This document shows positions 273 through 63,943 of a stretch of 64,000 nt of DNA, piece after piece. The notes under the pieces are model-generated. The model saw only the letters and a program-made list of their open reading frames with translations. It searched no databases and was not told where the DNA came from. The stretch's first letter is position 1. Every line of letters starts with the position of its first letter. This stretch comes from a phage, in the sequence record PV636258.1; one strand, given 5' to 3'. Both the position numbers and the translations under genes were made by a program.

Positions 273-590
273 ATGATTTCATTAAAAGAAATGTACGAAC
301 GCCTCGAAGAACTGAAATCTAAAGAACGTCTGTATTCAGAAGAGAATGCAGAAATGTCAGATCTTATCGAAAAAATTGCGTTGCGTGAAAAGTATCTTCA
401 ACGTTATATCAATCATCCACCTCATATGGTTGAGCGCATGTCTACAATTCTCGAATTGGACAGCAGCGGTGTAACAGGCAAAGACCTGATTGTCAAAGAG
501 GTTCATTCCATGGTGTCACTCGGTCAGATCTTTGGCCGCGCCGACCAGGATGACATGATCTTTTTACTTGAAAAGGCTCTGGTAAAATAA
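273..590 (+). CDS. Hypothetical protein
   Basis: ATG at 273 preceded by GGGAGAG; the track ORF start at 222 is TTG and overlaps the hairpin; stop overlaps next start (TAATG). Confidence 0.5.
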   Translation: MISLKEMYERLEELKSKERLYSEENAEMSDLIEKIALREKYLQRYINHPPHMVERMSTILELDSSGVTGKDLIVKEVHSMVSLGQIFGRADQDDMIFLLEKALVK

Positions 591-1111
591 TGGCTATCAA
601 ACCACGAATGATGTTCGCCCATATGCGATCAGCTGCAGCATATGGTGTAACCAGTTATGCTCGGCGTCTGCAAGTCGGTTGTGTTATCGTAAACCCTGAA
701 ACTGATCAGCCTGTGGCTATCGGATGGAACGGAACGCCTCCTGGCATGCCGAATGTTTGTGAGATGGAACAACACGGGCAAATTGTTACAAACCCGCGTG
801 TCATTCATGCGGAGGAAAATGCTCTAATGCGTATCCCCGAAAATGCAGATGATTTCACAGGGTTGGTTATGTTTGTGACACATAGCCCATGCCCTGATTG
901 CACTCAGAAGATCATCGACAACGGCAAGATCGATAAAGTATATTATCAAGAGCCATATCGTATCATGGATGGAATCAAAATATTGATGAACTCCGGAATT
1001 GAAGTTTACCGGATGGTGGGCGATATGGCAATCCTTAAACACGTTTTCGACGATCAAGGCGAAGTCGGATACGAACAAATCTTATCCAACCCAGACAAAG
1101 TAAGGAATTAA
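590..1111 (+). CDS. cd: dCMP deaminase (deoxycytidylate deaminase)
   Basis: Cytidine/dCMP deaminase zinc motifs HAEENA and PCPDC in a 173-aa protein; ATG start. Confidence 0.85.
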   Translation: MAIKPRMMFAHMRSAAAYGVTSYARRLQVGCVIVNPETDQPVAIGWNGTPPGMPNVCEMEQHGQIVTNPRVIHAEENALMRIPENADDFTGLVMFVTHSPCPDCTQKIIDNGKIDKVYYQEPYRIMDGIKILMNSGIEVYRMVGDMAILKHVFDDQGEVGYEQILSNPDKVRN

Positions 1112-12597: not shown

Positions 12598-14022
12598 TTA
12601 ACCGAAATTCCAATTGTTCACGGTCTCGGCTTTCTTGACATCATTTACGTCGCCTGTTTTGTTTAAGTCATGTTTGATATGAACATTCTCAACATAACGG
12701 GCTTCCTCTTCTGTCAGGTCTCGCTTGACTTCATTCCAATCCAAGTCAAACAATATCTGTTTATCTTGATCCATACCGAACAAGAACGATTTGAGTTTCT
12801 GTTTATTGGCATAACGGTTTTTCAAGATAGACGCTCGGGCTTTCTTAACAGCCGCCAGTTCATCAGGGGCATAGAACGCCATGATGAAGTCTGCAACCTT
12901 CGGAATACCGATAGCATCTGCCAGGTCGCTAATATCACCATCAGTCGCCGATTGTTTTTCACGGTTAAATTGCATACCTGTCCATACAGGGCAATCAAAT
13001 TCAAATCCAAGCGCACGGAATTCACGCGCCACCGACGTATAATACACGTTGGTGTTCTGCATTAAATGGGCAGGAAGGCGAGAAGACGCTGATTCACCCA
13101 AGTAGTCTATAATAATGACGTCCGGCGTAATTCCCGTGGATGTCGCATAATCAAGGATATCGCGGCGATATAGTCCTGTATGCCCAGCGCCTGAAGGATA
13201 TTCCTTGATAACAATATCACCCTTCATGGAACCGTCTTGACGAGTTCGCAACTTTTGTATCGTGGCGACATATTCATGTCGTGAGAGCTTCTCTAAGGAC
13301 TCGAAGTCCCTGCGCATCATACGGGCATCAAGGCGGTGACGCCAGACGTTCTCAGCCACTTCTAGGGTGAATACGAATACGTTCAACCCTTGCTCGGAGT
13401 AACCAGCAGCCAAATCAATCAGAGTTGTTGTCTTACCCGCATTAATTGCACCCGTCACGATGTTCAGCGTTTTCTTACCAACACCACCACGAGTCGCTTT
13501 GTTGAATATCTCTACAGCGAAAGGAATCTTCGCTTCATTAGAGTTCATGTGGTCGTATTGTTGTTCAGCCATTTCCCAATAGATATGGCCAAGATAAGAA
13601 TCAAAACTTATCGCCAACGCCTCTTGTAGGAGAGTTGGAATCGTGTTCATCTCATCTTTACGTTTCTCATCACCATAGATGTTGACGGCGTGTTTGATCG
13701 CATTATGAACAGCTTTCTGCCGCGCCCAACTTTCTGTTTCTTTTACAAGCCATTCCTGATGGAATGTGTTGTCATTGATATTCTCAAGAGCAGAAATAGC
13801 TTGTTCAAATACGTGTTCGTTGAGCGAAGTCTTTTCCAGCATAATAGACAACGCTTCAACCGAAGGACGAGCATTATATTCGCAAGTGTAATGGTCAATG
13901 AGACCGAATATAATTTTCTCGCCTTCGTTATCGAAATAATCGGCTTTCAAATACGGCTGGATCTTTCTTTGATATTCTTCGTTATAGATTAATTGGGAAA
14001 GCACGACAGATTCGAGTAACAT
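12598..14022 (-). CDS. 41: Replicative DNA helicase (DnaB-like, T4 gp41-like)
   Basis: Walker A GAINAGKTTTL and DnaB-family C-terminal ATPase architecture; ATG is the third codon of the track ORF (TTG at 14028). Confidence 0.8.
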   Translation of the reverse strand: MLLESVVLSQLIYNEEYQRKIQPYLKADYFDNEGEKIIFGLIDHYTCEYNARPSVEALSIMLEKTSLNEHVFEQAISALENINDNTFHQEWLVKETESWARQKAVHNAIKHAVNIYGDEKRKDEMNTIPTLLQEALAISFDSYLGHIYWEMAEQQYDHMNSNEAKIPFAVEIFNKATRGGVGKKTLNIVTGAINAGKTTTLIDLAAGYSEQGLNVFVFTLEVAENVWRHRLDARMMRRDFESLEKLSRHEYVATIQKLRTRQDGSMKGDIVIKEYPSGAGHTGLYRRDILDYATSTGITPDVIIIDYLGESASSRLPAHLMQNTNVYYTSVAREFRALGFEFDCPVWTGMQFNREKQSATDGDISDLADAIGIPKVADFIMAFYAPDELAAVKKARASILKNRYANKQKLKSFLFGMDQDKQILFDLDWNEVKRDLTEEEARYVENVHIKHDLNKTGDVNDVKKAETVNNWNFG

Positions 14023-14028
14023 TGGCAA

Positions 14029-14358
14029 CTACCCCACCAAAATTTTGTTGTAATCCTGAGCATTTTGCTGTATCAGATCAACTAAGATATCCCCAGACAC
14101 CACAGTGAACAAGTCATTTTCTTTCAAATTAACAAATAACAAACGCCATGGTTTCTTCAATATATCTGTTGTAAAGGATAACCGAGGCTCTCCATTATCT
14201 AAATGGACACCCACTTTCCCTATACGAAATTGAACGCCACGGAATTTGCCTTCCGTTATTTCGATTATTGCTAACTGATCAGAACCAGGGTCGATGATTT
14301 TGTAATTAACGGGGGAGTCTCCTCCCCCTGCAATATTACTCGGTTGTTTTGATGACAT
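14029..14358 (-). CDS. Hypothetical protein (occupies the gene-40 position between uvsX and 41)
   Basis: 109-aa ORF overlapping the uvsX stop; assignment by synteny only. Confidence 0.4.
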   Translation of the reverse strand: MSSKQPSNIAGGGDSPVNYKIIDPGSDQLAIIEITEGKFRGVQFRIGKVGVHLDNGEPRLSFTTDILKKPWRLLFVNLKENDLFTVVSGDILVDLIQQNAQDYNKILVG

Positions 14359-15421
14359 TATCGAGGCGCTCCAGCATATCTGCAGGCATAACCGAACTCT
14401 GAGAGATACCGAACATGTTGTTCACATCGTCAACAAAGTCTGGGTTTTCCAGCAGCGGATACCAGAAGTCATCCCCCAGCTCTGCCTTACGATATTTCTT
14501 TTCTTTTTCTGGATCAAACCCGCCTTTGGCAGTGCGTTGATACCAAGAACCACTCACCAAATCCACATACCCCAGCATGCGCGCAATTTCTAACATACCG
14601 GACCAACGGTCAATACCGCCTTCATACAACACAGTGACAGGGAACTTGGCTTTTTCACGGACAAAGCGGCCTTTCATAATGTTGACTGTAAACTGCCATC
14701 CCAAAAGGTCTTTGTCTTCTTTAACTTGAGAACGCGTGATGAACCACAATTGGTTAGAAGACAGGAACCCCTGTTTACCGCCTTTGATGTTCGGCTCGGC
14801 GTATTGGTTCCCGATTTCATCATAGTACGAGTTGATCCATACCAAAACGAATTTCTTTTCAGTGACCAACGGGGTGATAACACGCCAAAAACTATTGAGA
14901 GCGCGAGCGCGGGTCATATCTTGTGTGTCTTTGCCCGCGATGGCATCATCAACTTCTTTGGTAGACGGCAACTGGCTGATTGAGTCAATGAATACGATGA
15001 TCTTGTCACCTTTCTGTGCATCGTTCAGAAGCTGTGTCAGCTTGATCTTCGTCTTTTCAACGTTTTCAATCGGCAGATACAAGACACGGTCCATGTCAAT
15101 ACCCATAGATGTCCAGTAGTTTTCATTCGCACCGCCTTCTGAATCCGCGAAGATACAAATTGCATCAGGAAACTTATCCATGTAAGCCTTAACATCCACC
15201 AGCCCAAACATGGTTTTGAATGTACGAGAATCCCCTACCAACTGTTTGATGCCTGATATCAGACCACCATCAATACGACCGGACCAGGCCAAATTCAGAA
15301 TAGGAATACCCGTACTGCAAATAATGTCAGGCTTCAGCGCATCGGTCTTTGACAGCACTTCGGCATTCGGGTCCAGTTTCTTTGCTGTCTTGAGCATGCG
15401 AGCCATCAATGAATCGGCCAT
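14336..15421 (-). CDS. uvsX: RecA-like recombinase UvsX
   Basis: 361 aa; segments PILNLAWSG..GG, DAICIFADSEGG, VFIDSISQL, DMTRARALNSFWR, GGIDRWSGMLE parallel T4 UvsX. Confidence 0.85.
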   Translation of the reverse strand: MADSLMARMLKTAKKLDPNAEVLSKTDALKPDIICSTGIPILNLAWSGRIDGGLISGIKQLVGDSRTFKTMFGLVDVKAYMDKFPDAICIFADSEGGANENYWTSMGIDMDRVLYLPIENVEKTKIKLTQLLNDAQKGDKIIVFIDSISQLPSTKEVDDAIAGKDTQDMTRARALNSFWRVITPLVTEKKFVLVWINSYYDEIGNQYAEPNIKGGKQGFLSSNQLWFITRSQVKEDKDLLGWQFTVNIMKGRFVREKAKFPVTVLYEGGIDRWSGMLEIARMLGYVDLVSGSWYQRTAKGGFDPEKEKKYRKAELGDDFWYPLLENPDFVDDVNNMFGISQSSVMPADMLERLDNVIKTTE

Positions 15422-15936
15422 TTCGTTTCCTCTTGCTTGTTGATCGTAATTAATAAATCGGTGCCCAAGACTTTCTTGGACAATATATTGATTGCTTCGT
15501 GAATCGCCATTATTGACGGGAGTTTTTCATCGTTAATTTCGGAACCCCCGCGTTCTGTTAAATACATATTACGCAGACGATTGTGCTGTGCCCTGTTGAC
15601 ACAAGAAACATTCAATGCGATATTCAGGATATACATCATTTGTTCAGTTGTAACATCCTTTGGAATAGCATGAACATAATATATCGCATCTTCAAAATAG
15701 ATATGCTGTAATGACTCAGGAATTTCTTCTCCACCGAAAGCAAAATCTTCAATACGTTTGAAAAGGGTTTCCGGCTCTGGTGTTGTAATATGTTGCGTTA
15801 CAGTAGCCGCACCATCTGGTTCTTTGTTGAATTTGGTCGCGATAACGACATGACCGCCTGGTTTAATAAACTCAGCGAAGTTCTCTGCCATGTGCGGGGC
15901 ATATTCCGCATAATATGATACGACAACTGTAAACAT
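15406..15936 (-). CDS. Hypothetical protein
   Basis: 176-aa ORF between uvsX and the nucleotide-metabolism genes (the position occupied by beta-gt in T4); no glycosyltransferase motif recognised. Confidence 0.4.
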   Translation of the reverse strand: MFTVVVSYYAEYAPHMAENFAEFIKPGGHVVIATKFNKEPDGAATVTQHITTPEPETLFKRIEDFAFGGEEIPESLQHIYFEDAIYYVHAIPKDVTTEQMMYILNIALNVSCVNRAQHNRLRNMYLTERGGSEINDEKLPSIMAIHEAINILSKKVLGTDLLITINKQEETKWPIH

Positions 15937-16481
15937 TAGAACTCCAGAGTCAGAGGGGTTTCGGCAGACTTGTCATAGTTCGCACCGCCAGCAGCACGTA
16001 GACGATTGCGATCGTTTTTGCGCTTGTGTGCCAGCATGTAGGTCTCAGCATCCAGCCCCAAATATCCGCAAGCCGCTGCCAAGAAGGTAGCCAAAACATT
16101 CCGAAGAGGGTGTGACATGAAATACGTGAACAGTTCAGTCACTTTCCTGAGGTCGTTAGGGGTTTGAATTGGCTGCGCCTGAACGAATCTCACCATTTCT
16201 GGAATATCGTGTGGTTTGTCTTCCTCCTGCAGGACAGCACAGAGCATGAAGTGAACAACGTCCACCAACTCGTATATGGCATCCACTTGTCGCCAATGCT
16301 TACCACCCCCATAGATCTTCCAGTCTATGGTTGTTTCGTCTAGAAACTCTGCCCACTCACGATAGATGGAGTTTGCTATCGCCACTTCGGTCCAGCGCTT
16401 CTTCCACTCTTCCCCAAAATAGGCCACGTTGGTGGCCTTTTGAAGTTCGAGCAGACTTTTAATATGCTCTGCTGTGATCAT
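15936..16481 (-). CDS. MazG-like all-alpha NTP pyrophosphohydrolase (gp56 dCTPase/dUTPase-like)
   Basis: 181 aa; helix with ELVDVVHFML resembles the T4 gp56 family as recalled; translationally coupled to neighbours. Confidence 0.5.
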   Translation of the reverse strand: MITAEHIKSLLELQKATNVAYFGEEWKKRWTEVAIANSIYREWAEFLDETTIDWKIYGGGKHWRQVDAIYELVDVVHFMLCAVLQEEDKPHDIPEMVRFVQAQPIQTPNDLRKVTELFTYFMSHPLRNVLATFLAAACGYLGLDAETYMLAHKRKNDRNRLRAAGGANYDKSAETPLTLEF

Positions 16482-17047
16482 TTCCGATCCCTATAAAATT
16501 TGACGAACGGTTGCCAACCTTCAAACGGATTGACAAATTCATAATCAACTTCCATCTTATCAATGAAAGCCTCAATGTCATCCTCTATGATACCACCGCG
16601 ATCCGCCTTTGAAATGCGGGTGATGGGACATTTAGTGCTCAGCGCCCATTCATATTCCTGAGGGGTGCGCAAATCACTCACGATATAATGAACGTGTGGG
16701 TTCTGTTCCACCAAAGGAAGTTGATATCGTTTAAAGAATGACAGAAACAGGTCTGGTTGTACGTAACGCAAGCCCGTATCGCTGCCGAGATGAAGCCAGA
16801 TCTGCCGTGGAGTTAATCCCTTGGGGTTATCAGGGTGAACATATGGCAAGTCCTTGATGTCGTCCTCTACTTCCTCTGGCAACCAAGGATAGATGTAATG
16901 AGCCACCCGACGCAACTCGTCTGAGAAAGATAAGCGCTGGATGTCCATATCACCCTGTAAATGGTGAAAGCTGATGAGGGACTCCAAACAGAAGTCCTTG
17001 CCGGAGCGCTTGCGCCCCGTAAAGAATTCCAGATTAGGGTATTTCAT
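16478..17047 (-). CDS. 1: Deoxynucleoside monophosphate kinase (T4 gp1-like)
   Basis: From the ATG at 17047 the N-terminus MKYPNLEFFTGRKRSGKD matches the T4 gp1 P-loop GVKRSGKD; the track start at 17062 is GTG. Confidence 0.7.
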   Translation of the reverse strand: MKYPNLEFFTGRKRSGKDFCLESLISFHHLQGDMDIQRLSFSDELRRVAHYIYPWLPEEVEDDIKDLPYVHPDNPKGLTPRQIWLHLGSDTGLRYVQPDLFLSFFKRYQLPLVEQNPHVHYIVSDLRTPQEYEWALSTKCPITRISKADRGGIIEDDIEAFIDKMEVDYEFVNPFEGWQPFVKFYRDRK

Positions 17048-18084
17048 TCCCCATACCCCCACATGTGTTTACGGTCAACGGGTGATTGTAACAACGCATT
17101 ACGAAGACCATCATCAGCAATCCGACGTTTATCAATTTTAGTATCATTAAGGCGACACCACAGACAATATGACATATCCATCATCAAACCTGTATCTGCG
17201 TTATATTCCTTCAAATGCTCTCTGATTTTACCAAATTCACTGCCAATGTCACAGTGATGAAGTACACCGAGGAACAGATTTTGGATGTTTTCTTGACATT
17301 TCACCTTTTCCGAAGAGAATTCCAACAAAGAATTGTACATACCAGTAGAAGTTCGGGTCTTGTTGGTTATGTTCCCGAGTTGCTTCCGACTGACTTCGTT
17401 GTTGTAATAGTGAAGGTTATTCGAGAACAGTTTATAATTCCCGACTTCCACGTTCAACACCTTCGCCAATACTTCCTGCAAAATGGAGAATTCAATGAAG
17501 TTGATTGAACTCATACCCCAGAGGACATCCTGACTTCGATTGATGACCGTGATGTTCAACCGCCCTTCTGTTATACTGAACAATAAAGCCAGATTACAGA
17601 TCATGTCTTTAGTCTTGGCTTCTCCTGTTTCACTATGCGCGGCCAAACTTTCATCTGAGTCCAGAGCTGGATCATAGATGGTGAGATACGCCTGACGGGT
17701 GTTGGGGTTATTGCGCAAACGGTTGATGACACTATTCAGCTGGCCATAGTTGTACAGGCGTGGTCCGTAAGCACCACGCCACGTTACGCCATCATCCGAG
17801 AAGTTGACCGCACGAGGGAGGACTCGGGAAAGGAAACGGATGTCATTGCGGCCTGACAGAACCCAGAATGTTTCACCAATCGCAGCAAGCGCAGATGAAT
17901 TACGACCTTCAACAGATAACCAACGATCTCGAGGGTCAGCCACCGTAATCGTCACGCCATCAATAAAACGAGTGCCGTCAGTGTTAATCTCTGCGTTGCC
18001 AGGATCTGACTCAATCCCGTGTTCACGGATAGCCAACACAGCTTTCTTCAGCATATCATTATTGTTTAAAGCAAAAATCTCCAT
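17044..18084 (-). CDS. Thymidylate-synthase-fold pyrimidine deoxynucleotide hydroxymethylase/methylase homologue with about 110-aa C-terminal extension
   Basis: TS-family blocks: candidate catalytic Cys in DMICNLALLF (vs PCHAFFQF), NRSQDVLWG (vs QRSCDVFLG), NNLHYY (vs GDTHLY); 346 aa from the ATG. Confidence 0.7.
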   Translation of the reverse strand: MEIFALNNNDMLKKAVLAIREHGIESDPGNAEINTDGTRFIDGVTITVADPRDRWLSVEGRNSSALAAIGETFWVLSGRNDIRFLSRVLPRAVNFSDDGVTWRGAYGPRLYNYGQLNSVINRLRNNPNTRQAYLTIYDPALDSDESLAAHSETGEAKTKDMICNLALLFSITEGRLNITVINRSQDVLWGMSSINFIEFSILQEVLAKVLNVEVGNYKLFSNNLHYYNNEVSRKQLGNITNKTRTSTGMYNSLLEFSSEKVKCQENIQNLFLGVLHHCDIGSEFGKIREHLKEYNADTGLMMDMSYCLWCRLNDTKIDKRRIADDGLRNALLQSPVDRKHMWGYGE

Positions 18085-18746
18085 CAATCAATACTCCCAA
18101 AATCACGATTGAGAAACGCAAAAACAGCCTGCTCTACAGTCAGGCCATCGGACTTCATCATACCTGCAGCCACCGTAGGGAACAAGCCTTTATGCCGTTG
18201 ACGGTGATCATGAACTCTCTCCCACTTCTCGACCACCAGACTTTCATTGAAGTCTGCGCCACCGTTACGCGATTTAACACGGGCAATACAGGTTTCAAGA
18301 GGGGTATCCATAAAGAGGACGACCAATTCACGTGGTGGGCGTGTCAGGCGGGGAATCCAAGAACTCAATAATGTAGACGGAATGATGCCTTCGAAAATCA
18401 CATCATATTTCAGGTATTCTGGTTGGTCAGCAATAGACAACGCGAACAACATCTGCTCAGTATCCTTCAGAGAATCAACCCCTTTGGACTTAGACTTGTC
18501 ATATTTACCGACACAGACAATATTGTAAGATGGACAAACCGTGAGCATGATCTTACTGTTATGGGTTACGACATACGCCTGAGGATCATTCTCCGCCAAA
18601 TAAGAAGGCACAGTAGACTTACCACTACCATTGGAGCCTTTAATGTAATACAACTCTCCTCGTGCCGAATATTCCCCTTCTACAGCAGGTGGTTTGACAA
18701 ACAAATGAACAGGGCGCTTCAACAGCCCTTTGAGCGAATAAGACAT
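18084..18746 (-). CDS. P-loop kinase (nucleotide or DNA kinase, specificity unknown)
   Basis: Walker A GSNGSGKST; stop overlaps the ATG of the TS-fold gene; ATG at 18746 (track start is TTG). Confidence 0.5.
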   Translation of the reverse strand: MSYSLKGLLKRPVHLFVKPPAVEGEYSARGELYYIKGSNGSGKSTVPSYLAENDPQAYVVTHNSKIMLTVCPSYNIVCVGKYDKSKSKGVDSLKDTEQMLFALSIADQPEYLKYDVIFEGIIPSTLLSSWIPRLTRPPRELVVLFMDTPLETCIARVKSRNGGADFNESLVVEKWERVHDHRQRHKGLFPTVAAGMMKSDGLTVEQAVFAFLNRDFGSID

Positions 18747-18818
18747 GACATGCTCCAATAAACAAAAGGAGCTGCTATTATAGCAGCCCCTTTATCTATT
18801 GAACGCTTCTGAATTAAA

Positions 18819-19778
18819 TTACGCAGCAGCTTTCGCTTCGGCCAACGCCTGTGGTAACCATTCATTGATTGCTTTCACCAGAGATTCGGCATCAGTTTCT
18901 TTGATTTTCTGGCGTTTGGTGAATGATTTACCATTCACATACAGACTGAACCCCCAGCCGCCGGAAACGATCGGCGCCAGATCAACATAAGTATTGGTGC
19001 GGGCGTGTGGATTGGCTTCATCTGCCAATTCGGTAACAGGGAACTGGAACCAGCGCATATCCGGATTCACATAGCTCAAATAAACCCCAGGCACAACCCC
19101 CGATTCAACCGCAGCCAGGATAGGACCATAATTGGATGCGCGAGCCGCTTCAACCATTTCTTCACGCTTGTTATGACGACGCTTGCGTTCTTCGGTAGAA
19201 GATGCAGGGCGCATTTCAGAAGATTTCTTGGCCAGAACCGCCTTCGCGTTCGCTAAAGCCTGATCATCCTTCGGATTTTCAACGTCGGCGATTGCTTCAG
19301 CAACGGTTGTGCCCAGCATACGACGGCGAACTTCTTCAGCACGGGCTTGCGCTTCTTCGTCAAGAACTTCTTCGCCTTCAACTACCAGGGAAATGGAACC
19401 GTCTTTGTTGACTTCAAGAGAACCGTCTTCGACGGTCTGGGAATTTTGATCACCGACAGGTTGCCCAACCGTTTCTTCGGCGTCAATCACCGGATTTGAT
19501 TCACCGTCGCCCTGTTTAACCCCCGCATCTTCGGTCGGTTTAACTTTTTCGGCTTCAGCGCGGTCAAGAGCTTCGAGAGTCTCTTCTTTCTCTTCCTGGC
19601 TCAGACCTTCGATGAGTTCAAAGCCATTGGCTGACTGAAGGACGCCTTCCATCATGCGGCGTAATGTTACATTGCCAATGATAAGGTCTGCACCTTTAAT
19701 TTCTGCTTGAAGTTCAGCAGCGGTTTTACCATCAATTTCAAATTTCAGGCCGGACTCGATATGAAGAATATAGGACAT
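18819..19778 (-). CDS. Hypothetical protein with acidic central linker
   Basis: 319 aa; N-terminal domain, D/E-rich low-complexity middle, C-terminal domain; preceded by early promoter. Confidence 0.5.
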   Translation of the reverse strand: MSYILHIESGLKFEIDGKTAAELQAEIKGADLIIGNVTLRRMMEGVLQSANGFELIEGLSQEEKEETLEALDRAEAEKVKPTEDAGVKQGDGESNPVIDAEETVGQPVGDQNSQTVEDGSLEVNKDGSISLVVEGEEVLDEEAQARAEEVRRRMLGTTVAEAIADVENPKDDQALANAKAVLAKKSSEMRPASSTEERKRRHNKREEMVEAARASNYGPILAAVESGVVPGVYLSYVNPDMRWFQFPVTELADEANPHARTNTYVDLAPIVSGGWGFSLYVNGKSFTKRQKIKETDAESLVKAINEWLPQALAEAKAAA

Positions 19779-19845
19779 AATAAAAACCCTTTTGTGTAGT
19801 AACCTTCTTTGGCAGTCTAATGTTCAACTGTGCGTCTGGAACATT

Positions 19846-21823: not shown

Positions 21824-22765
21824 GTGGAAGACTATCGCAATTTTCTAACGCAACTGCTTCAACGGGGTATTTCCCGCAAGAACAGATTTCGTGTTACAAT
21901 TCCGTTGCCGCCTGGAATATTTGATTCCAATGCGACACTAGCAAATGATGGGAACGCATATCCTTCATCTTCATTCGGCGATTTATTCAAACAAAGCGCC
22001 CGTATTGTAAACGCATTCTTTGGAGGGACAAACCAAACATCTCGTTCCCTGCAAATGATGTGTATGGTCGCATCTTTACCTGGTACAGGGATTGACACTA
22101 CTCCCATGACCAACAACGGCAACCACATTAAAATGCCGAACAACAAGACGAACATTGATCTGGAGTTGTCGTTCCTCCTCGCCAACGATTATTATGAAAA
22201 GTCGGTCATGGACAAATGGAAGAATCTGATATTCGACCCATACACAACCAAGATGGGTTATTATGAAGACTTCGTGACCGATATTTGTATAGAGCAAATG
22301 GATACAGAAGATCAGGTTGTTCATCGCGTTTATGTGACTGAGGCTCACCCCATCAACTTCAGTTCTATAGATCTGGATAAAAGCGCCGCCGATCAATTTA
22401 ATCAGTACAACATTTCCTTTTCTTATAACAAAGTATTATCGGAGACTGAATATGAAACGCGCAGCCTCGCCAGCGATTTTCTTCCTTTGGGTATTACTGA
22501 TGCTCTTGCTTCCGGAGACTGGGAAACCGCTGCGTCAAAAGCCGGACAGCTATATAAAAAGATCAAAGAAGGAAACTTCACAGGTGAAGCCCTGCTGGCT
22601 TATAAGCAACTCGATCAGCTTGTAAACAATCTGGCTGGTATCAGCTTGGCTGATTTCGAAAGGATCTCTATCGGCATCCAGAGGGATATCTTAGGCAATG
22701 ATAACCTGACGGCGTCTGAGAAGAGTAGTTTACTCGGATTGTTACAGGATGTTGTCAAAAACTAA
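21824..22765 (+). CDS. Hypothetical late protein (possible virion component)
   Basis: In-frame GTG with GGAG SD; the longer track ORF from 21629 overlaps the divergent gene and has no ATG before 21824. Confidence 0.4.
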   Translation: MEDYRNFLTQLLQRGISRKNRFRVTIPLPPGIFDSNATLANDGNAYPSSSFGDLFKQSARIVNAFFGGTNQTSRSLQMMCMVASLPGTGIDTTPMTNNGNHIKMPNNKTNIDLELSFLLANDYYEKSVMDKWKNLIFDPYTTKMGYYEDFVTDICIEQMDTEDQVVHRVYVTEAHPINFSSIDLDKSAADQFNQYNISFSYNKVLSETEYETRSLASDFLPLGITDALASGDWETAASKAGQLYKKIKEGNFTGEALLAYKQLDQLVNNLAGISLADFERISIGIQRDILGNDNLTASEKSSLLGLLQDVVKN

Positions 22766-22767
22766 AA

Positions 22768-22783
22768 AGCCCCCGAAGGGGCT
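22768..22783. terminator. Bidirectional stem-loop (AGCCCC-CGAA-GGGGCT) between convergent genes
   Basis: Inverted repeat flanked by A-tract on one side and T-tract on the other. Confidence 0.5.
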
Positions 22784-22792
22784 TTAGCGAAA

Positions 22793-23824
22793 TTAGTCTT
22801 GCTTCAGGAACTGCTCGAACTCATCAATGGTAGCCGTCTGTTTCGCATCGGCACCACCATTATTGGCTGGAACAGATTGCTGTGCATTAGAAGGCTGAGA
22901 TTGTTGTTGGTTCAGACTTTCCTGCGCTGTTGGGCGCTGTGGTTCCTGAGACTGGGTAGGCGCATGTGCCATAGTAGAAGCACCACCTTCAACCAGAGGC
23001 TGATTGTCAGGGATGGCCAGAACTTTGCGCAAACGTTTTTCCAGATCTTCGTACGATTTGAAGTTGGCCGGATTAAAGAACTCAAACAGACTGTGTTCTT
23101 TTTCCCAGATCTCTTCAATGTATTCGTCTGTCCCCAAAGGTGCCGGAGTATCCCACTTCACATTGGTGAAGTTAGCCACCAGACCTTTCCAGTTTCCGAA
23201 CTCTTTCTCTTCACCAAAGAGGTTCAGAATCAGGTTCGCGCCTTCCCACATATCGAACGGGTCGAATTTAGGGTCAGTTGAGAACTTAGGATTCTGAGCC
23301 GAATCCAGGATTTTCTTGACGGCATTACCGAACTCAAGCAAGAAGACCTTGCCGTTGTTTTCCGGATTGTTACCATCTTTGATCACCAGGATGTTGGCGT
23401 AGTATTTGGTGTCCGGCAGACGTTTTTTGAGAACTGTTTTCAGCTTTTCATCATTCGTTTCTTTCTGTTGTGCCCACAGAGGACGGTCATGGTCGCGAAC
23501 AGGATCATCGTTACCGAAAGTCTGAGGAGAGTTTTCGATATACCAACCACCAGCGCCCTGGAATGCGTGTTTCATGATCATGGCACACGGAGTTAACACA
23601 GCATCTTCAGGGATGGTGCCTTCTTCTTGAGCCTTCATGTCCACCAAAGGGATCGGCAGGAAACGAATGATGTTTTCAGAAGTACCCTTGTCATTCCAGG
23701 TCCACTTCCAGATGCGCGGGTCACGACCGCCACCAACACGCTGGCCTTGCTGAGCGAGTCGCTGTTGCATAGCTTCGGCTTGTTGGCCACGAGATTGTTT
23801 AAGACGATCAAATAAATTACCCAT
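22793..23824 (-). CDS. 32: Single-stranded DNA-binding protein (T4 gp32-like)
   Basis: 343 aa; IRFLPIP, WYIE, YANILVIKD..PEN.GKVFLLEFG and WEGANLIL parallel T4 gp32 blocks; acidic C-terminus. Confidence 0.75.
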   Translation of the reverse strand: MGNLFDRLKQSRGQQAEAMQQRLAQQGQRVGGGRDPRIWKWTWNDKGTSENIIRFLPIPLVDMKAQEEGTIPEDAVLTPCAMIMKHAFQGAGGWYIENSPQTFGNDDPVRDHDRPLWAQQKETNDEKLKTVLKKRLPDTKYYANILVIKDGNNPENNGKVFLLEFGNAVKKILDSAQNPKFSTDPKFDPFDMWEGANLILNLFGEEKEFGNWKGLVANFTNVKWDTPAPLGTDEYIEEIWEKEHSLFEFFNPANFKSYEDLEKRLRKVLAIPDNQPLVEGGASTMAHAPTQSQEPQRPTAQESLNQQQSQPSNAQQSVPANNGGADAKQTATIDEFEQFLKQD

Positions 23825-37776: not shown

Positions 37777-38265
37777 TTAAGCCAATTTGTTCACCAGAGT
37801 TTCTACTGCGTCGGCGCTCAGTTTACCCATTTTGACATACTGGGATTTCGCTTCACCGCCAGCGGCTTTCACGATATCACTGTTGTCATAACCCTTTTTC
37901 GGGAATACCATCACGGAGAATGTTCCGTTGTTCAGCGGGTTCAGCTGAATACGACCTTTACCGACTACGATGGTGCCGTAAGTTTCGGTATTCGCTTCAA
38001 CAACGTGGATGTCATGGCCCAGGTCTTTCAGCATGCCAACTTTGTCAGCAGTCTTGGCAACTACGGCTTTGTCTACGACAACCTGCTCTACCAGGGTGAA
38101 GCCGTTGGTTGCTTTCACTTTGCCGTTCAGCAGATTCATGAAGGAAGTTTTGCCACCAGTGAATCCAGCTGCCTGAGCGATGCGGAACATCTCAACTTTT
38201 GCAACTTCGGTGTTCAGCTCAAAAGAGATGGTGCCGTTGGTGATCAGAGTTTTGGTAGTAGCCAT
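37777..38265 (-). CDS. Hypothetical protein, likely abundant early product
   Basis: 163 aa from the ATG at 38265 with GAGGAA SD; strong promoter with AT-rich upstream element; the track start further upstream is implausible. Confidence 0.5.
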   Translation of the reverse strand: MATTKTLITNGTISFELNTEVAKVEMFRIAQAAGFTGGKTSFMNLLNGKVKATNGFTLVEQVVVDKAVVAKTADKVGMLKDLGHDIHVVEANTETYGTIVVGKGRIQLNPLNNGTFSVMVFPKKGYDNSDIVKAAGGEAKSQYVKMGKLSADAVETLVNKLA

Positions 38266-38342
38266 GATGTAATTCCTCATAATGTAGTTGGGTCGTTTCA
38301 CTTTTCATTCGGCGGTGTGTTGTGTACCGCCCTATGTGAACT

Positions 38343-38371
38343 ATAATAGTGCATCATTATTGAAGAGTAAA
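38343..38371 (-). promoter_or_regulatory. Sigma70-like early promoter (minus: TTTACT-N17-TATTAT) with AT-rich upstream element
   Basis: Read directly; about 40 nt of A/T-rich sequence upstream of -35. Confidence 0.45.
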
Positions 38372-38415
38372 GTCTTTTTCAATAAATTTTTAAATTATTT
38401 TTGAAGTATTTTAAA

Positions 38416-38436
38416 AGGCCTCATAGAACGAGGCCT
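38416..38436 (-). terminator. Stem-loop (AGGCCTC/GAGGCCT)
   Basis: 7-bp inverted repeat followed by T-tract on the minus strand. Confidence 0.45.
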
Positions 38437-38464
38437 GAAGGGAAATAATTTGAGTTAAAAAGTT

Positions 38465-38674
38465 TTAGGTCGGCTTCTTTTTCAAATACTGGCGAGCCAA
38501 ATCCATTTGTTCTTCAGTGATAGGACAACCGCCGAAGTCCACCATTCCATTCCTCCAACCATGGATGAAACTCTTAGATTCTAAGCCAGATAGGACATAT
38601 CCTTCACGGGCTTGCATATACCCGCGAAGAATCTCTTCATCGTCCATACTATTCAGTTCTTTCAAATCCATCAT
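38465..38674 (-). CDS. Hypothetical protein
   Basis: 69-aa ORF overlapping the primase stop. Confidence 0.4.
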   Translation of the reverse strand: MMDLKELNSMDDEEILRGYMQAREGYVLSGLESKSFIHGWRNGMVDFGGCPITEEQMDLARQYLKKKPT

Positions 38675-39735
38675 ATCTTCCTCAAGTCAGAAAATCGTAA
38701 GGACGCCGACAGTCCCTGATATACGTTCTTGGCCATGATCTGAAGCAGATCACGTATCGGGATATTTCCCTTGTCGGGGCGAACCATATCATTGATATCC
38801 TTCCACGGTATTTCCGGTGGAAACAGAACGACTTTGACTCCGCTGTCTATCATCTTCTGTATACCGTCACAAACTTGTTTGTTCCTGTATTGGTTATCGG
38901 GGATATAGATGTCCCCCTTAGCACTTAATAAGTCGGCATCGGCAGTCGCAAGACAATTAGGTAGAAACAAGCTATCAATTGGACCTTCTACTACCAACTT
39001 TGTTTTGTTCCAAATGATGCGCTCTTCCCCGTAAATCTTAGTGTCTTCGTTCTTAGGCTTGACAGTGGCATACCGTAATACCCCATCAGGAAGGTTATCG
39101 CCGAATGCGCGCCCCTGAACTATCTTCATGCGCCCGTCTTGGGTCCAGAATGGGATTACCAGCCGCTCATCTTCGGGTATCTTCTTCTGCTTCTCAACAT
39201 CCGTTTCGAAACTCAGAAGATCTTGACGAAAATTTCTGCTGTAATATAACAAAGATAACGTGCTCTCCGGCATTCCCCTGCCTTCAACATAACGACGGGC
39301 GATATGATCACGGTCAAGAAGATCAAGGCGTATCATATTCCCAAGGTGCTCTTCATCCCGTTTGGCGACCCGAGAACCGATACGTGCTGTCTGGGTCAGG
39401 CGCTGTAGTGGTTTGAGTTTTTGTAACGGGCGGGAACTGGTATCCCCCATGATTCTGAATTTTTCAAGGTTGTATTCATTATACAGACGCTCGTCAAACT
39501 TCTTCAACCAGAATTCAAACGCCCAACCGCTCATTTCATTACAGTTGTGGCACTTGAAACGAAACACATCGTCATCACGATCATAAAAGAAGTGACCACG
39601 ACGCTTGTTAGCACTCTTCTTAGAATCCCCACATAATGGGCAACGAAATTTGGCGACAGCGCCAACACGTTCCCAGCTGAATTTATCAAGTCGGGGGGCG
39701 AGAAAATTGATGTATTGTTCGTCAAGAAATTTCAT
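38671..39735 (-). CDS. 61: DNA primase (T4 gp61-like)
   Basis: 354 aa; zinc ribbon FRCPLCGDSK...KCHNCN as in T4 gp61 (FRCPVCGDSK...CYNCN); Toprim-type acidic blocks (VVEGPIDSLF). Confidence 0.75.
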   Translation of the reverse strand: MKFLDEQYINFLAPRLDKFSWERVGAVAKFRCPLCGDSKKSANKRRGHFFYDRDDDVFRFKCHNCNEMSGWAFEFWLKKFDERLYNEYNLEKFRIMGDTSSRPLQKLKPLQRLTQTARIGSRVAKRDEEHLGNMIRLDLLDRDHIARRYVEGRGMPESTLSLLYYSRNFRQDLLSFETDVEKQKKIPEDERLVIPFWTQDGRMKIVQGRAFGDNLPDGVLRYATVKPKNEDTKIYGEERIIWNKTKLVVEGPIDSLFLPNCLATADADLLSAKGDIYIPDNQYRNKQVCDGIQKMIDSGVKVVLFPPEIPWKDINDMVRPDKGNIPIRDLLQIMAKNVYQGLSASLRFSDLRKI

Positions 39736-41974: not shown

Positions 41975-44704
41975 TTATTTCAGACTAATCTGAAGATTAC
42001 CACCCAGCGATTGTTCATATTCACTGTATGCACTATCACCATTACTCATAGCCCATTCGTCGGATTGGCGAGCGCGTTCAAGGGTCATGAGATTTGGCTC
42101 GGTAGGATTATAGCCTTTAGATTTCGCGTCGTTGTATACCGTTTGCAGGTATTGGTTGGCACGGTTGATCTGATCCTTGAATTCACGATATGCTCCTTCG
42201 GTCGTATTGCGACGGAAAGTGATATCCCAAGCAACATTCAGAACTGTACCATTACTGGCTGTGTATACCTGCCAATCCAGATCTCGTCCATTAGGAGCGC
42301 TGTCACGAATGGATTCGGCATAGGTGGCCAGATCACCTGCATTCTTACCTCCAGCAGCCTGATCTTTAGCCCGAGCCAGAGCATCAATGACTGCTGTGCG
42401 GTTCCTGGACTGCGCCAAATCTTTGTCTTGGAACATAATCGCGCCAAATTTACTGACAGTGATGTCATTCAGGAACAGATTGTTAGGGTTATAGTTTGAT
42501 GAACTGAGGTGGCTCAGTTGCGACGCTGCGTCTTTCAGGCGTCGAGAAATCTCATCCAATGCATCTTGCACTGATTTGACAGACAACGAAATATCATATC
42601 CATTGCTGTCTACTACATTTCGACCATTTTCAGTCAACATGGTGGTGATGTTGGCTTTGTTTCGATCGAAGTCGTAAGTTACGTTGGTAACGAATCTTGC
42701 GGCTTGCAACTTGCTGCCAGCAGGGAACTGGAAATCCCACGCTACAGAGAAGCCATGAACGGTTTCACCAAAAAATTTAGCATTGCTTGGTACTTTGATG
42801 TTTGCAGTGATCACTGCATTTTCACTGGAATTGGTGTTGATTTCACCAAAGATAGTACGCTCGTCGGAAGATTGAACCAACAGAGTATCTTTTCCACGCC
42901 AATCATAGCGGACTTTGAATGTTGTACGAGGAAACTCTTTCATCAGATCAAGTTTGACCGCCTTGCCCAAGGTAAACCGATTCAGCAGAGCGTCAGCGAT
43001 CTTCAATGTGAAAGAACCGCAATCAACGTAAGAATATCCCTGAGAACGGGAAATTTTTTGAATCGGATATGGGGCACCGTTAATAGGAACAACACGGCAT
43101 TCTACTTCTCCTGCAAATTGAGAATCGGCTGCACGGGAGATTGCGCCCACTATTTCATAAGCGGCGTTTTTCACGTCTCCTTCCAGCATAAGTTGGTCAT
43201 GACCAGACAAATCTGATACTACTTCTACAGAAAGTTTTCCGTTGACAATTCCCCAGAAATAAACCTGAATGTCCAGACCACCCGAAGTACGATATTTGCC
43301 CGCACCGATTCGTGTTAGTTTCTCACCTGCATACATACCGACCTGTTGTGGAGCATATGTATCAACGATACCCAAGATGCGGGCGATATAACCCTGGTTG
43401 CGCAGATCATCCATAGAACCGGTTTTTGGAAGAGTTTTCATGTCGACGGGAGCAGTAGCCCCTATTCCAAATTCAACATATGCCACAATCTTGCCGCCGG
43501 ACTTCAGTTCCCACCCCATTCCCTGACGGTCAGAAGCTGCCATGATTTTGCGATCCACTTCACCGCGACCGACATATTCTTTGTTGAATACGGTCACCTG
43601 AGCGATAGATTGGGAGCGGGCAATCTTCGCCATTGCGCCATCTTTGACCATGATGGCCAGATCATTGGAACTCAGAGTCACATCGTTCGCACCGACTACC
43701 TTCACAACAGAACTGAAGATACCGTTGGACTTCGCCATGATTGAAATGTTCCAGTCAGGATTGGTAGAATCTGAATTGCTGGTGTCAACATCCACAACAA
43801 GTACAACCTGCCCGCCTTTCTTGAACGTGTACTGGTCATACAACCCTTTCTTCTGTTTAGACATGTCTGCGCCGATTAAGTCCTGGTTGGTGAAACCGCG
43901 CTTCATGCTCCAGGATACTTCTGTGCCATCCAGGTATTTATCAAAATTGTAGCCATAGAAGGTGGCAACTTCACGGGAACCGCTCACCAGTCGGACGTAG
44001 TTTCCGCGGATAGGGTCGCGACCATTCTTCAATTCAAGGCTAGTGTCGGAAGAGTTATACCAATCACGGTTGACTTCAACCTCTGAACTGTTGTAAGAAG
44101 ATGAAGTCCCCACATCCAGAGTATCGTTCTGAACCGGAACGTCACCGACTTTGTCCGGATCATCCCATGTGACACCTTTCATTTTCGGGCCATCAAATAC
44201 CTGAGCAGGATCCTTACCTTTACGCACAACCCATACAAATGCACGATCAGGGATAGGGGTATACGTCAGGTCCATGACATTGAGCTTCTGCTTCAGGCCG
44301 GACTGACGGATGATCTTCGGCAGGAGGGTAACACCACGTTCCAATGCTTTCTTGGAGAAGTTAATTGCAAAGCCGTCAATGGTTTTACCCAAAGGCGTCG
44401 CCATGAATTGCTTTGTTGCTTCAATCATGGATGCGATAACGCGCATCGGATTCTTGAAACGACCGATGGCATCGGGATATGTGGAACCACGCTTCTGACC
44501 GATAAAGACTTGGCGAACATTCTTGCCTAGACCTTGTGGGGTATAGAATTGAATACGGAATTCTTTTTCGTCTTCATCAACAAATGTGAAGAAAATGTCG
44601 CCAGCGTTCTTCTTGCCGAATGTCAATTCATACGGGGATGAGTTAAACGCTTCGTCTAATTGTTTAGACTCTTCAAGAAAGTTCAAGAAAGATGGGATGG
44701 CCAT
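41975..44704 (-). CDS. Large hypothetical protein (909 aa)
   Basis: Uninterrupted 2.7-kb ORF, ATG with AGGAG SD; S/T/N/G-rich, beta-rich composition; no polymerase or ATPase motifs seen. Confidence 0.6.
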   Translation of the reverse strand: MAIPSFLNFLEESKQLDEAFNSSPYELTFGKKNAGDIFFTFVDEDEKEFRIQFYTPQGLGKNVRQVFIGQKRGSTYPDAIGRFKNPMRVIASMIEATKQFMATPLGKTIDGFAINFSKKALERGVTLLPKIIRQSGLKQKLNVMDLTYTPIPDRAFVWVVRKGKDPAQVFDGPKMKGVTWDDPDKVGDVPVQNDTLDVGTSSSYNSSEVEVNRDWYNSSDTSLELKNGRDPIRGNYVRLVSGSREVATFYGYNFDKYLDGTEVSWSMKRGFTNQDLIGADMSKQKKGLYDQYTFKKGGQVVLVVDVDTSNSDSTNPDWNISIMAKSNGIFSSVVKVVGANDVTLSSNDLAIMVKDGAMAKIARSQSIAQVTVFNKEYVGRGEVDRKIMAASDRQGMGWELKSGGKIVAYVEFGIGATAPVDMKTLPKTGSMDDLRNQGYIARILGIVDTYAPQQVGMYAGEKLTRIGAGKYRTSGGLDIQVYFWGIVNGKLSVEVVSDLSGHDQLMLEGDVKNAAYEIVGAISRAADSQFAGEVECRVVPINGAPYPIQKISRSQGYSYVDCGSFTLKIADALLNRFTLGKAVKLDLMKEFPRTTFKVRYDWRGKDTLLVQSSDERTIFGEINTNSSENAVITANIKVPSNAKFFGETVHGFSVAWDFQFPAGSKLQAARFVTNVTYDFDRNKANITTMLTENGRNVVDSNGYDISLSVKSVQDALDEISRRLKDAASQLSHLSSSNYNPNNLFLNDITVSKFGAIMFQDKDLAQSRNRTAVIDALARAKDQAAGGKNAGDLATYAESIRDSAPNGRDLDWQVYTASNGTVLNVAWDITFRRNTTEGAYREFKDQINRANQYLQTVYNDAKSKGYNPTEPNLMTLERARQSDEWAMSNGDSAYSEYEQSLGGNLQISLK

Positions 44705-63774: not shown

Positions 63775-63943
63775 CGTTTTGACCTTTTTGGGCTTTGGAG
63801 TGTTTGGAGTTCGCGTCGGCGTTCTCCAGCATAGTTTCAATGAAATCCCGGTTGTTTTCCATTTGGGCGACCAGAACATCACTGGGACGGAATGAATTGT
63901 CAAGACAATCAAGTCCGGCGCGTTTTAATTTGTTGTCGGTCAT
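63767..63943 (-). CDS. Small hypothetical protein
   Basis: 58 aa from the ATG at 63943 (track start is TTG); stop overlaps the vWA start. Confidence 0.25.
   Translation of the reverse strand: MTDNKLKRAGLDCLDNSFRPSDVLVAQMENNRDFIETMLENADANSKHSKAQKGQNDD

Follow-up and report, generated by a model that had tools for sequence, protein, structure and literature searches.

Thymidine hypermodification in ViI-type phages has already been characterised, and the pathway is not new: Lee et al. published it in 2018 (PMC5889632) and 2021 (PMC8989533) for the same phage genus, Kuttervirus, as the one studied here. A 301-Da nucleoside replaces about 40% of T in phages ViI, CBA120, CBA6 and 1.255.O; ViI-like DNA contains modified T and normal dC, and about 60% of its T positions are plain T (PMC5889632). 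Recombinant ViI gp67 phosphorylates 5-hmdU in DNA (PMC8989533), and the gene adjoining this 5-hmdU DNA kinase (5-HMUDK) was mapped as a dUMP hydroxymethyltransferase, its activity being predicted (PMC5889632). Related chemistry is found in other systems. Phage SPO1 encodes a deoxyuridylate hydroxymethylase, gp29 (X60728), and leaves the hmU in its DNA unmodified; the 5-HMUDK-bearing genomes surveyed in PMC5889632 do not include SPO1. In the hmC pathway of T4 (gp42, gp1, gp56 and the alpha/beta-glucosyltransferases), a thymidylate synthase (TS)-fold hydroxymethylase acts on the nucleotide pool together with a phage dNMP kinase, and the hydroxymethyl group is then decorated on the DNA polymer. 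MilA of Streptomyces rimofaciens, a CMP 5-hydroxymethylase (PDB 5jnh, 5b6d, 5jp9; PMC5175136), serves antibiotic biosynthesis instead of the supply of DNA precursors.

In this study, a 64,000-nucleotide stretch of phage DNA (PV636258.1; hereafter the window) was analysed. Judged by its sequence, it comes from a Kuttervirus (Ackermannviridae, ViI-like) Salmonella phage: positions 15400-19800 are 100% identical to Salmonella phage vB_SenA_SM5, and the identity is 97.7-98.4% beyond that 4.4-kb stretch. The open reading frame list places four head-to-tail minus-strand genes at 15936-18746, where the first-pass annotation had drawn them, with TGATG or ATGA overlaps at the junctions (Table 1). These are real genes, since the 4.4-kb stretch is kept in 271 related Ackermannviridae phage records and they match their families very strongly (for example, phrog_3676 at E 9e-183, besides PF18748). 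The four overlapping genes thus stand as first described; the string does not end with them, because a gene for an ACT-like protein is also coupled, sitting between the dUTPase gene and uvsX with overlapping junctions on both sides. A terminator-like hairpin lies between an upstream gene of 319 aa and the ribosome-binding site of the kinase gene; this putative terminator forms the 5' boundary of the module. A promoter scan found no excess of sigma-70-like sites (22 versus 17.5 ± 3.9 in shuffled sequence). We consider, with a probability of about 0.93, that the module represents the pre-replicative half of the ViI-type thymidine-hypermodification pathway together with its first post-replicative enzyme.

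Table 1. Features of the predicted modification module and associated genes (positions in the window).
Feature	Position	Strand	Basis
Terminator-like hairpin (putative)	18765..18793	-	Consensus scan and sequence; stem of 13 bp with a T-run after it
Predicted 5-hydroxymethyl-dU DNA kinase (5-HMUDK), ViI gp67 orthologue	18084..18746	-	PF18748 and 94% identity
Predicted dUMP 5-hydroxymethyltransferase, 346 aa	17044..18084	-	TS fold (residues 1-236) and MilA-like C-terminal region (about 237-346)
gp1-like deoxynucleoside monophosphate kinase, 189 aa from ATG	16478..17047	-	phrog_139, E 1.6e-48
Dimeric-type (all-alpha, MazG-superfamily) dUTPase / NTP pyrophosphohydrolase	15936..16481	-	PF08761
ACT-like protein, 176 aa	15406..15936	-	PF24021, E 4.3e-87, full length
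dCMP deaminase	590..1111	+	PF00383, E 1.3e-17; corresponds to ViI Vi01_030 'dCMP deaminase'

The closest counterpart is ViI itself. Its genes Vi01_061c to Vi01_058c correspond to the four described here, are ordered and overlap in the same way, and are likewise followed by the ACT-like gene and uvsX. At the protein level, identity is 94% for the P-loop kinase (gp67, Vi01_061c / YP_004327432, over all 220 residues), 93% for the TS-fold protein (Vi01_060c), 94% for the dNMP kinase (Vi01_059c, 'dnk') and 89% for the dUTPase (Vi01_058c). The differences amount to strain-level substitutions, and no functional difference was detected between the two sets of genes.

The P-loop kinase was what had first pointed to a hypermodified base, as a second kinase beside a TS-fold hydroxymethylase. 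This suggestion is borne out by its full-length match to PF18748 (HMUDK_HMUD1; profile 1-196 of 196, E 3.1e-112, score 373.2 bits, cut-off 27) and by its close identity to the assayed gp67. The protein carries a Walker A motif (G37-SNGSGK43-S44), and its ATG start is preceded by GGAG; a longer form from a TTG at 18758 is unlikely. The profile comparison proposed in the first-pass annotation, which left a choice between a 5-hmdU DNA kinase and an ordinary dNMP kinase, gave E 2.6e-5 for the thymidylate-kinase PHROG. On these sequence grounds the enzyme is identified as a 5-hmdU DNA kinase. Searches of solved-structure sequences with both kinases (P-loop and dNMP) returned no match below E 0.1.

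For the TS-fold protein, the same kind of comparison placed it with SPO1 gp29 and MilA and not with ThyA. It shares 35% identity with gp29 (E 9e-35; hhalign probability 100), and its match to MilA (E 2.5e-17) is stronger than those to E. coli ThyA (1.6e-6) and T4 Td (2.3e-4). With gp29 it has in common the FSDDGV, TKDxxCN, NRSxDxxWG and LHxY motifs of the core, an Asn at the base-specificity position and a long C-terminal tail, the C-terminal regions being unalignable by sequence (the hhalign alignment covers residues 4-233 only). The catalytic-Cys and phosphate-binding blocks recognised at first sight are indeed kept: Cys163 (catalytic), Arg183, Ser184, Asp186, His225 and Tyr227 are invariant in an alignment of 32 homologues. 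Database labels such as 'thymidylate synthase', 'putative kinase' or 'guanylate kinase' would instead fit a module that merely boosts canonical dTTP by means of an ordinary thymidylate synthase and an ordinary thymidylate/dNMP kinase, and so would the plain T at about 60% of ViI T positions (PMC5889632) and the catalytic Cys and dUMP-binding residues, Asn included, which are those of TS. However, the protein falls below every NCBIfam ThyA equivalog cut-off (range 108-405); the best scores, in bits, were 55.8 (cut-off 174.55), 55.0 (cut-off 327) and 51.1 (cut-off 327). It is also much closer to the SPO1 dUMP hydroxymethylase and MilA than to ThyA, and in place of the C-terminal segment of TS, to which the tail covering the active site belongs (PMC5175136), it has a helical domain. 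The kinase, for its part, matches PF18748 far better than the thymidylate-kinase PHROG, and its ViI orthologue acts on hmdU in DNA (PMC8989533). A purely canonical role in dTTP supply is therefore highly improbable.

The first-pass annotation left it undecided whether the substrate of the TS-fold enzyme is dCMP or dUMP. Specificity determinants for uracil and deoxyribose have been published: at the base-specificity position, Asn selects uracil and Asp selects cytosine (PMC5175136). The phage enzyme has Asn195 at this position, a residue that hardly varies within the family (32-sequence alignment), and it aligns with the Asn of SPO1 gp29 and with Asp179 of T4 gp42 without a gap at the motif; its equivalence to Asp186 of MilA hinges on the placement of a one-residue gap in the MilA alignment. 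Ser184 and Arg130 occupy the deoxyribose positions, whereas the ribose-preferring MilA has Ala176 and Lys133. Given Asn195, Ser184 and Arg130, the predicted substrate resolves to dUMP. A dCMP (or CMP) hydroxymethylase of the T4 gp42 or MilA type, leading to an hmC-derived base, could be argued from the fact that the best match among solved structures, by sequence and by fold, is the CMP hydroxymethylase MilA, and from the position of the gene upstream of uvsX and gp41 and beside a DNA-level modifying enzyme, a place taken in T4 by gene 42 and beta-gt. Yet T4 gp42 and MilA have Asp where the phage enzyme shares Asn with TS and SPO1 dUH; the sugar-contacting residues are of the deoxyribose type; the phage-encoded dCMP deaminase would remove dCMP; and dC is normal in ViI-like DNA, the modified base being T (PMC5889632). 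A cytosine substrate is thus extremely unlikely. Two further differences set the module apart from that of T4: gp42 has 246 aa and is without the helical tail, and T4 uses glucosylation, whereas the polymer-level step of the ViI type is phosphorylation followed by amino-acid transfer.

The C-terminal extension of the dUMP hydroxymethylase was described at first as an addition of about 110 residues after the TS core, which made the protein larger than T4 gp42 or ThyA and contained Cys and His residues. Its length is confirmed: the PF00303 match (E 1.9e-15) covers residues 68-234 only and ends at profile position 217 of 266, and residues 237-346 follow it. The extension is not appended to a complete TS core, but takes the place of the C-terminal ThyA segment of about 47 residues; part of that segment is the tail with which TS closes over its active site once folate binds (PMC5175136). 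Nor is the large size a peculiarity, since SPO1 gp29 has 383 aa, the MilA chains 325-342 aa and the homologues about 320-385 aa. The structure prediction suggested for this region gave an AF2 model with a pLDDT of 92.8. In Foldseek searches the model matched MilA over its full length, the five C-terminal helices included (target-normalised TM 0.81-0.83), and TS with a query-normalised TM of about 0.55. According to the model, the extension is the MilA-type five-helix C-terminal region. In the MilA crystal structure this region lies away from the active site (PMC5175136), and its role there is probably structural, a matter of solubility. A zinc or other metal site built from the HHC...CLWC residues was also considered. 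H276, H277, C278, C307 and C310 are conserved in the closest Kuttervirus sequences only; homologues with 55-65% identity have Leu, Ile, Val, Ala, Ser or Gly at these positions (32-sequence alignment). Because these residues are not conserved, a metal site in the extension is unlikely.

The remaining genes fit the supply of precursors. The gp1-like dNMP kinase and the MazG-like pyrophosphatase had been so named in the first-pass annotation. The former shares the GxKRSGKD P-loop with T4 gp1, to which its pairwise BLASTP match is weak (E 0.003), and it gave no match above cut-off in Pfam or NCBIfam; it may convert 5-hmdUMP to 5-hmdUDP. The latter matches dUTPase_2 over profile positions 2-159 of 162 (E 5.5e-9; score 37 bits, gathering cut-off 22.9), as well as phrog_173 (E 6.8e-42) and the Campylobacter dUTPase 1w2y (E 2e-4); dUTP is its presumed substrate. 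The dCMP deaminase, whose first assignment is confirmed, may supply dUMP.

Taken by homology, the pathway would proceed as follows. The dCMP deaminase and the dUTPase would feed dUMP, and the hydroxymethylase would transfer the methylene group of CH2-THF to C5 of dUMP via Cys163 and then hydrate it, without reduction, to form 5-hmdUMP. A predicted product of 5-hmdUMP, with release of THF, in preference to dTMP with release of DHF, has indirect support from the hmdU-derived base in ViI-like DNA (PMC5889632). The gp1-like kinase would produce 5-hmdUDP and the host NDP kinase 5-hmdUTP, which the phage polymerase would place in DNA. The P-loop kinase would then use ATP to phosphorylate the 5-hydroxymethyl group of hmdU in duplex DNA, giving 5-PmdU, as has been demonstrated with the ViI orthologue. 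In ViI, a serine:DNA transferase of the gp247 type has been shown to exchange the phosphate for serine, joined through its side-chain oxygen, and a PLP decarboxylase of the gp226 type to yield 5-(2-aminoethoxy)methyl-dU (5-NeOmdU), at about 40% of T. The genes for these two steps lie outside the window: tblastn with gp160, gp226, gp243 and gp247 gave no match to these genes within the 64 kb, the sole match there being gp67. The SM5 genome has orthologues of gp226 (91%), gp243 (87%), gp247 (87%) and gp160 (79%), all beyond the span of the window, suggesting that the downstream modification genes are also present in the genome of this phage. With identities to ViI of only 79-91%, and with a combinatorial diversity of end products known in the family (PMC8989533), the module might be valid up to 5-PmdU and the final adduct might differ from 5-NeOmdU through diverged transferase or tailoring enzymes. 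This is very unlikely, considering that the same 301-Da nucleoside occurs in ViI, CBA120, CBA6 and even the Vibrio phage 1.255.O (PMC5889632), and that a 2024 review describes the modification genes as conserved across the Ackermannviridae (PMC11721090). For the phage studied here, 5-NeOmdU is the expected end product.

Homologues of the ACT-like protein form only 8 clusters, all of Ackermannviridae-type sequences. Only about the first 95 residues of its AF2 model are predicted with confidence, and the fold of this part has weak Foldseek matches to ACT domains (E about 4e-3). It is conceivable, if very improbable, that this protein and/or the MilA-like helical tail governs the amount of hmdU or the site of modification. 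Such control could involve the sensing of a small molecule (serine, folate or a nucleotide) by the ACT-like protein or the tail; alternatively, the hydroxymethylase could dock onto the kinases as part of a complex that synthesises dNTPs. If true, this could bear on why only about 40% of T is hypermodified and the rest is plain T.

5-NeOmdU blocks many restriction enzymes, and the module would explain the resistance of ViI-like DNA. This resistance is relevant to candidate phages for therapy and to the cloning or sequencing of ViI-like genomes, all of which has been published. The practical value of the present analysis lies in annotation, as both the kinase and the hydroxymethylase are mislabelled and the C-terminal domain of the latter can now be recognised as a MilA-type helical region. 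In RefSeq and PHROG-based annotation, the dUMP hydroxymethylase is widely labelled 'thymidylate synthase', and the 5-hmdU DNA kinase, just as widely, 'terminase small subunit'.

The extra P-loop kinase of the module matched the Pfam family PF18748 ('5-hmdU DNA kinase') over its full length (373 bits, E 3e-112, profile positions 1-196 of 196), and is 94% identical across all 220 residues to Vi01_061c of phage ViI, whose record is noted as orf00067 (accession YP_004327432) and which Lee et al. list as gp67, a 5-hmdU DNA kinase (PMC8989533, Table 1). In that paper, ViI gp67 is reported to turn 5-hmdU in DNA into a phosphorylated nucleotide of 418 u, and its kinase assays also showed that 32P passes from [gamma-32P]ATP to DNA. 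Hence this kinase is an enzyme already characterized by experiment rather than an ordinary dNMP kinase. The family match and the identity to the assayed protein bear out the first-pass annotation, which had suggested by analogy that this kinase may act at the DNA level; its inference of a hypermodified base made by this route was right. PHROG 800 and the RefSeq entries of many Kuttervirus genomes call the 5-hmdU DNA kinase 'terminase small subunit'. This label is a propagated misannotation; the genuine small subunit is annotated beside the large terminase (Vi01_162c). The mislabelled gene, tabulated below for the window, lies at 22685-23347 in record L001 and at 38203-38865 in record L002.

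The substrate of the thymidylate-synthase-fold protein, dCMP or dUMP, had been left undecided, and the evidence resolves it to dUMP. The protein is 93% identical to ViI Vi01_060c, a gene drawn as 'dUMP hydroxymethyltransferase' and co-associated with 5-HMUDK, the 5-hmdU DNA kinase (Lee et al. 2018, PMC5889632). Among characterized enzymes, SPO1 gp29, the classical deoxyuridylate hydroxymethylase, matched it at 35% identity (E 9e-35; hhalign probability 100), followed by the CMP hydroxymethylase MilA (E 2.5e-17) and the thymidylate synthases E. coli ThyA (E 1.6e-6) and T4 Td (E 2.3e-4). Its scores were far below all NCBIfam ThyA equivalog cut-offs (e.g., 55.8 against 174.55 bits). According to Zhao et al. 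2016 (PMC5175136), cytosine enzymes are recognized by Asp (MilA 186, T4 gp42 179) and uracil enzymes by Asn; Ala176/Lys133 go with a preference for ribose, and Ser/Arg with one for deoxyribose. The protein carries Asn195, Ser184 and Arg130 at these positions; the latter two are invariant and Asn195 nearly so among 32 homologues. An AlphaFold model built on this 32-sequence alignment (pLDDT 92.8) was matched by MilA over its full length (target-normalised TM 0.81-0.83), and by thymidylate synthases in the core only (query-normalised TM about 0.55). Judged by similarity ranking, specificity residues and predicted fold, the protein is a putative hydroxymethylase acting on dUMP.

The C-terminal extension of about 110 residues noted earlier is present after position 236; conservation of its Cys/His residues is limited to the closest Kuttervirus sequences. 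Five helices are predicted in it (264-279, 284-292, 299-312, 325-333 and 335-338), the counterpart of alpha9-alpha13, the C-terminal five-helix region in the crystal structure of MilA; in MilA this region lies away from the active site and is needed for solubility (PMC5175136). Compared with ThyA, the extension occupies the place of the C-terminal segment, including the tail by which the active site is covered upon folate binding. Enzymes of the group commonly have a long C-terminal region (SPO1 gp29, 383 aa; most homologues, 320-385 aa). A metal site in the extension is unlikely, because relatives at 55-65% identity have aliphatic or small residues in place of H276, H277, C278, C307 and C310.

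Features of the modification module and its borders in the window
Feature	Coordinates	Strand	Length	Basis
ACT-like gene	15406-15936	minus	176 aa	PF24021
All-alpha pyrophosphatase	15936-16481	minus	181 aa	ORF list
dNMP kinase	16478-17047	minus	189 aa	ORF list
Thymidylate-synthase-fold protein	17044-18084	minus	346 aa	ORF list
P-loop kinase	18084-18746	minus	220 aa	ORF list
Terminator-like hairpin	18765-18793	minus		13-bp GC-rich stem, then T-run
Acidic 319-aa protein	18819-19778	minus	319 aa	phrog_3905

The four consecutive genes of the proposed operon (15936-18746) were found as described, with TGATG or ATGA overlaps at all internal junctions. Coupling runs on beyond them into the ACT-like gene, which has one base in common with the pyrophosphatase gene and extends 16 bases into the start of uvsX. 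The ATG of the kinase is preceded by GGAG, and an alternative, longer TTG start (18758) adjoins this ribosome-binding site. The loop region of the hairpin contains TATAAT. The hairpin follows the stop of the 319-aa gene, precedes the Shine-Dalgarno sequence of the kinase, and could be a terminator or RNA-processing site at the module start. The 319-aa protein, directly upstream, has Vi01_062c as its ViI counterpart and no match in a Pfam search. The gene order is parallel to that of T4. In T4 (record L012, 2613-8220) it is 42 (hydroxymethylase), beta-gt, (segA), uvsX, 40 and 41; in the window (12598-18746, minus) it is 5-HMUDK, hydroxymethylase, dNMP kinase, dUTPase, ACT-like, uvsX, a 109-aa ORF and gp41 helicase. 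Upstream of uvsX, both carry a hydroxymethylase for pyrimidines and an enzyme that modifies at the DNA level.

Three further genes may serve precursor supply. The dNMP kinase is 'gp1-like' at the family level (phrog_139 'deoxynucleoside monophosphate kinase', E 1.6e-48) and through a GxKRSGKD P-loop common to both, but the pairwise match to T4 gp1 is weak (E 0.003). The pyrophosphatase, previously called MazG-like, shares the all-alpha superfamily with MazG; its family is the dimeric dUTPases (PF08761, E 5.5e-9, above the Pfam cut-off; Campylobacter dUTPase 1w2y, E 2e-4). The dCMP deaminase at 590-1111 was confirmed. By analogy with the SPO1-type scheme in PMC8989533, these three enzymes would supply dUMP and phosphorylate 5-hmdUMP. 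The ACT-like protein ('phage ACT-like domain', E 4e-87), coupled translationally between dUTPase and uvsX, has homologues in only 8 clusters, all of Ackermannviridae-type sequences. Only its N-terminal 95 or so residues model confidently; the predicted fold is ACT/ferredoxin-like, and Foldseek matched it weakly to ACT domains (1zpv, PurU and SerB2).

Downstream in the ViI pathway, gp247 attaches serine to 5-PmdU (phosphorylated 5-hmdU in DNA) via the side-chain oxygen, and gp226 decarboxylates the adduct to 5-NeOmdU (PMC8989533). This 301-Da nucleoside replaces about 40% of T in ViI, CBA120, CBA6 and 1.255.O (PMC5889632), and a 2024 review regards this modification as a family hallmark (PMC11721090). 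Searches by tblastn with ViI gp160, gp226, gp243 and gp247 gave no match within the 64-kb window; orthologues of all four (79-91% identity) occur elsewhere in the genome of Salmonella phage vB_SenA_SM5 (OM681507). The important features of the module are already published for ViI, which belongs to the same genus and whose proteins are 89-94% identical.

A megablast search against GenBank phages showed that 15400-19800 is 100% identical to SM5 and returned 271 related records, essentially all Ackermannviridae, with Salmonella, Klebsiella, Escherichia, Dickeya and similar hosts; the matching records are assigned to the genus Kuttervirus. Colinearity of the window with ViI runs from about 17.9 to 83 kb. 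Outside 15400-19800, the overlapping parts of SM5 are only 97.7-98.4% identical, and phage Chennai (MN953776) is 99.6% identical over the first 25 kb; this uneven sequence identity suggests that close Kuttervirus strains have exchanged segments in a mosaic manner. Elsewhere in the window, the 909-aa protein at 41975-44704 (minus) had no match in a Pfam search. The 784-aa ORF at 61558-63912 (minus, TTG start), annotated as about 738 aa in SM5 and ViI, has a von Willebrand factor A domain at its N terminus (PF00092, E 4.5e-7).
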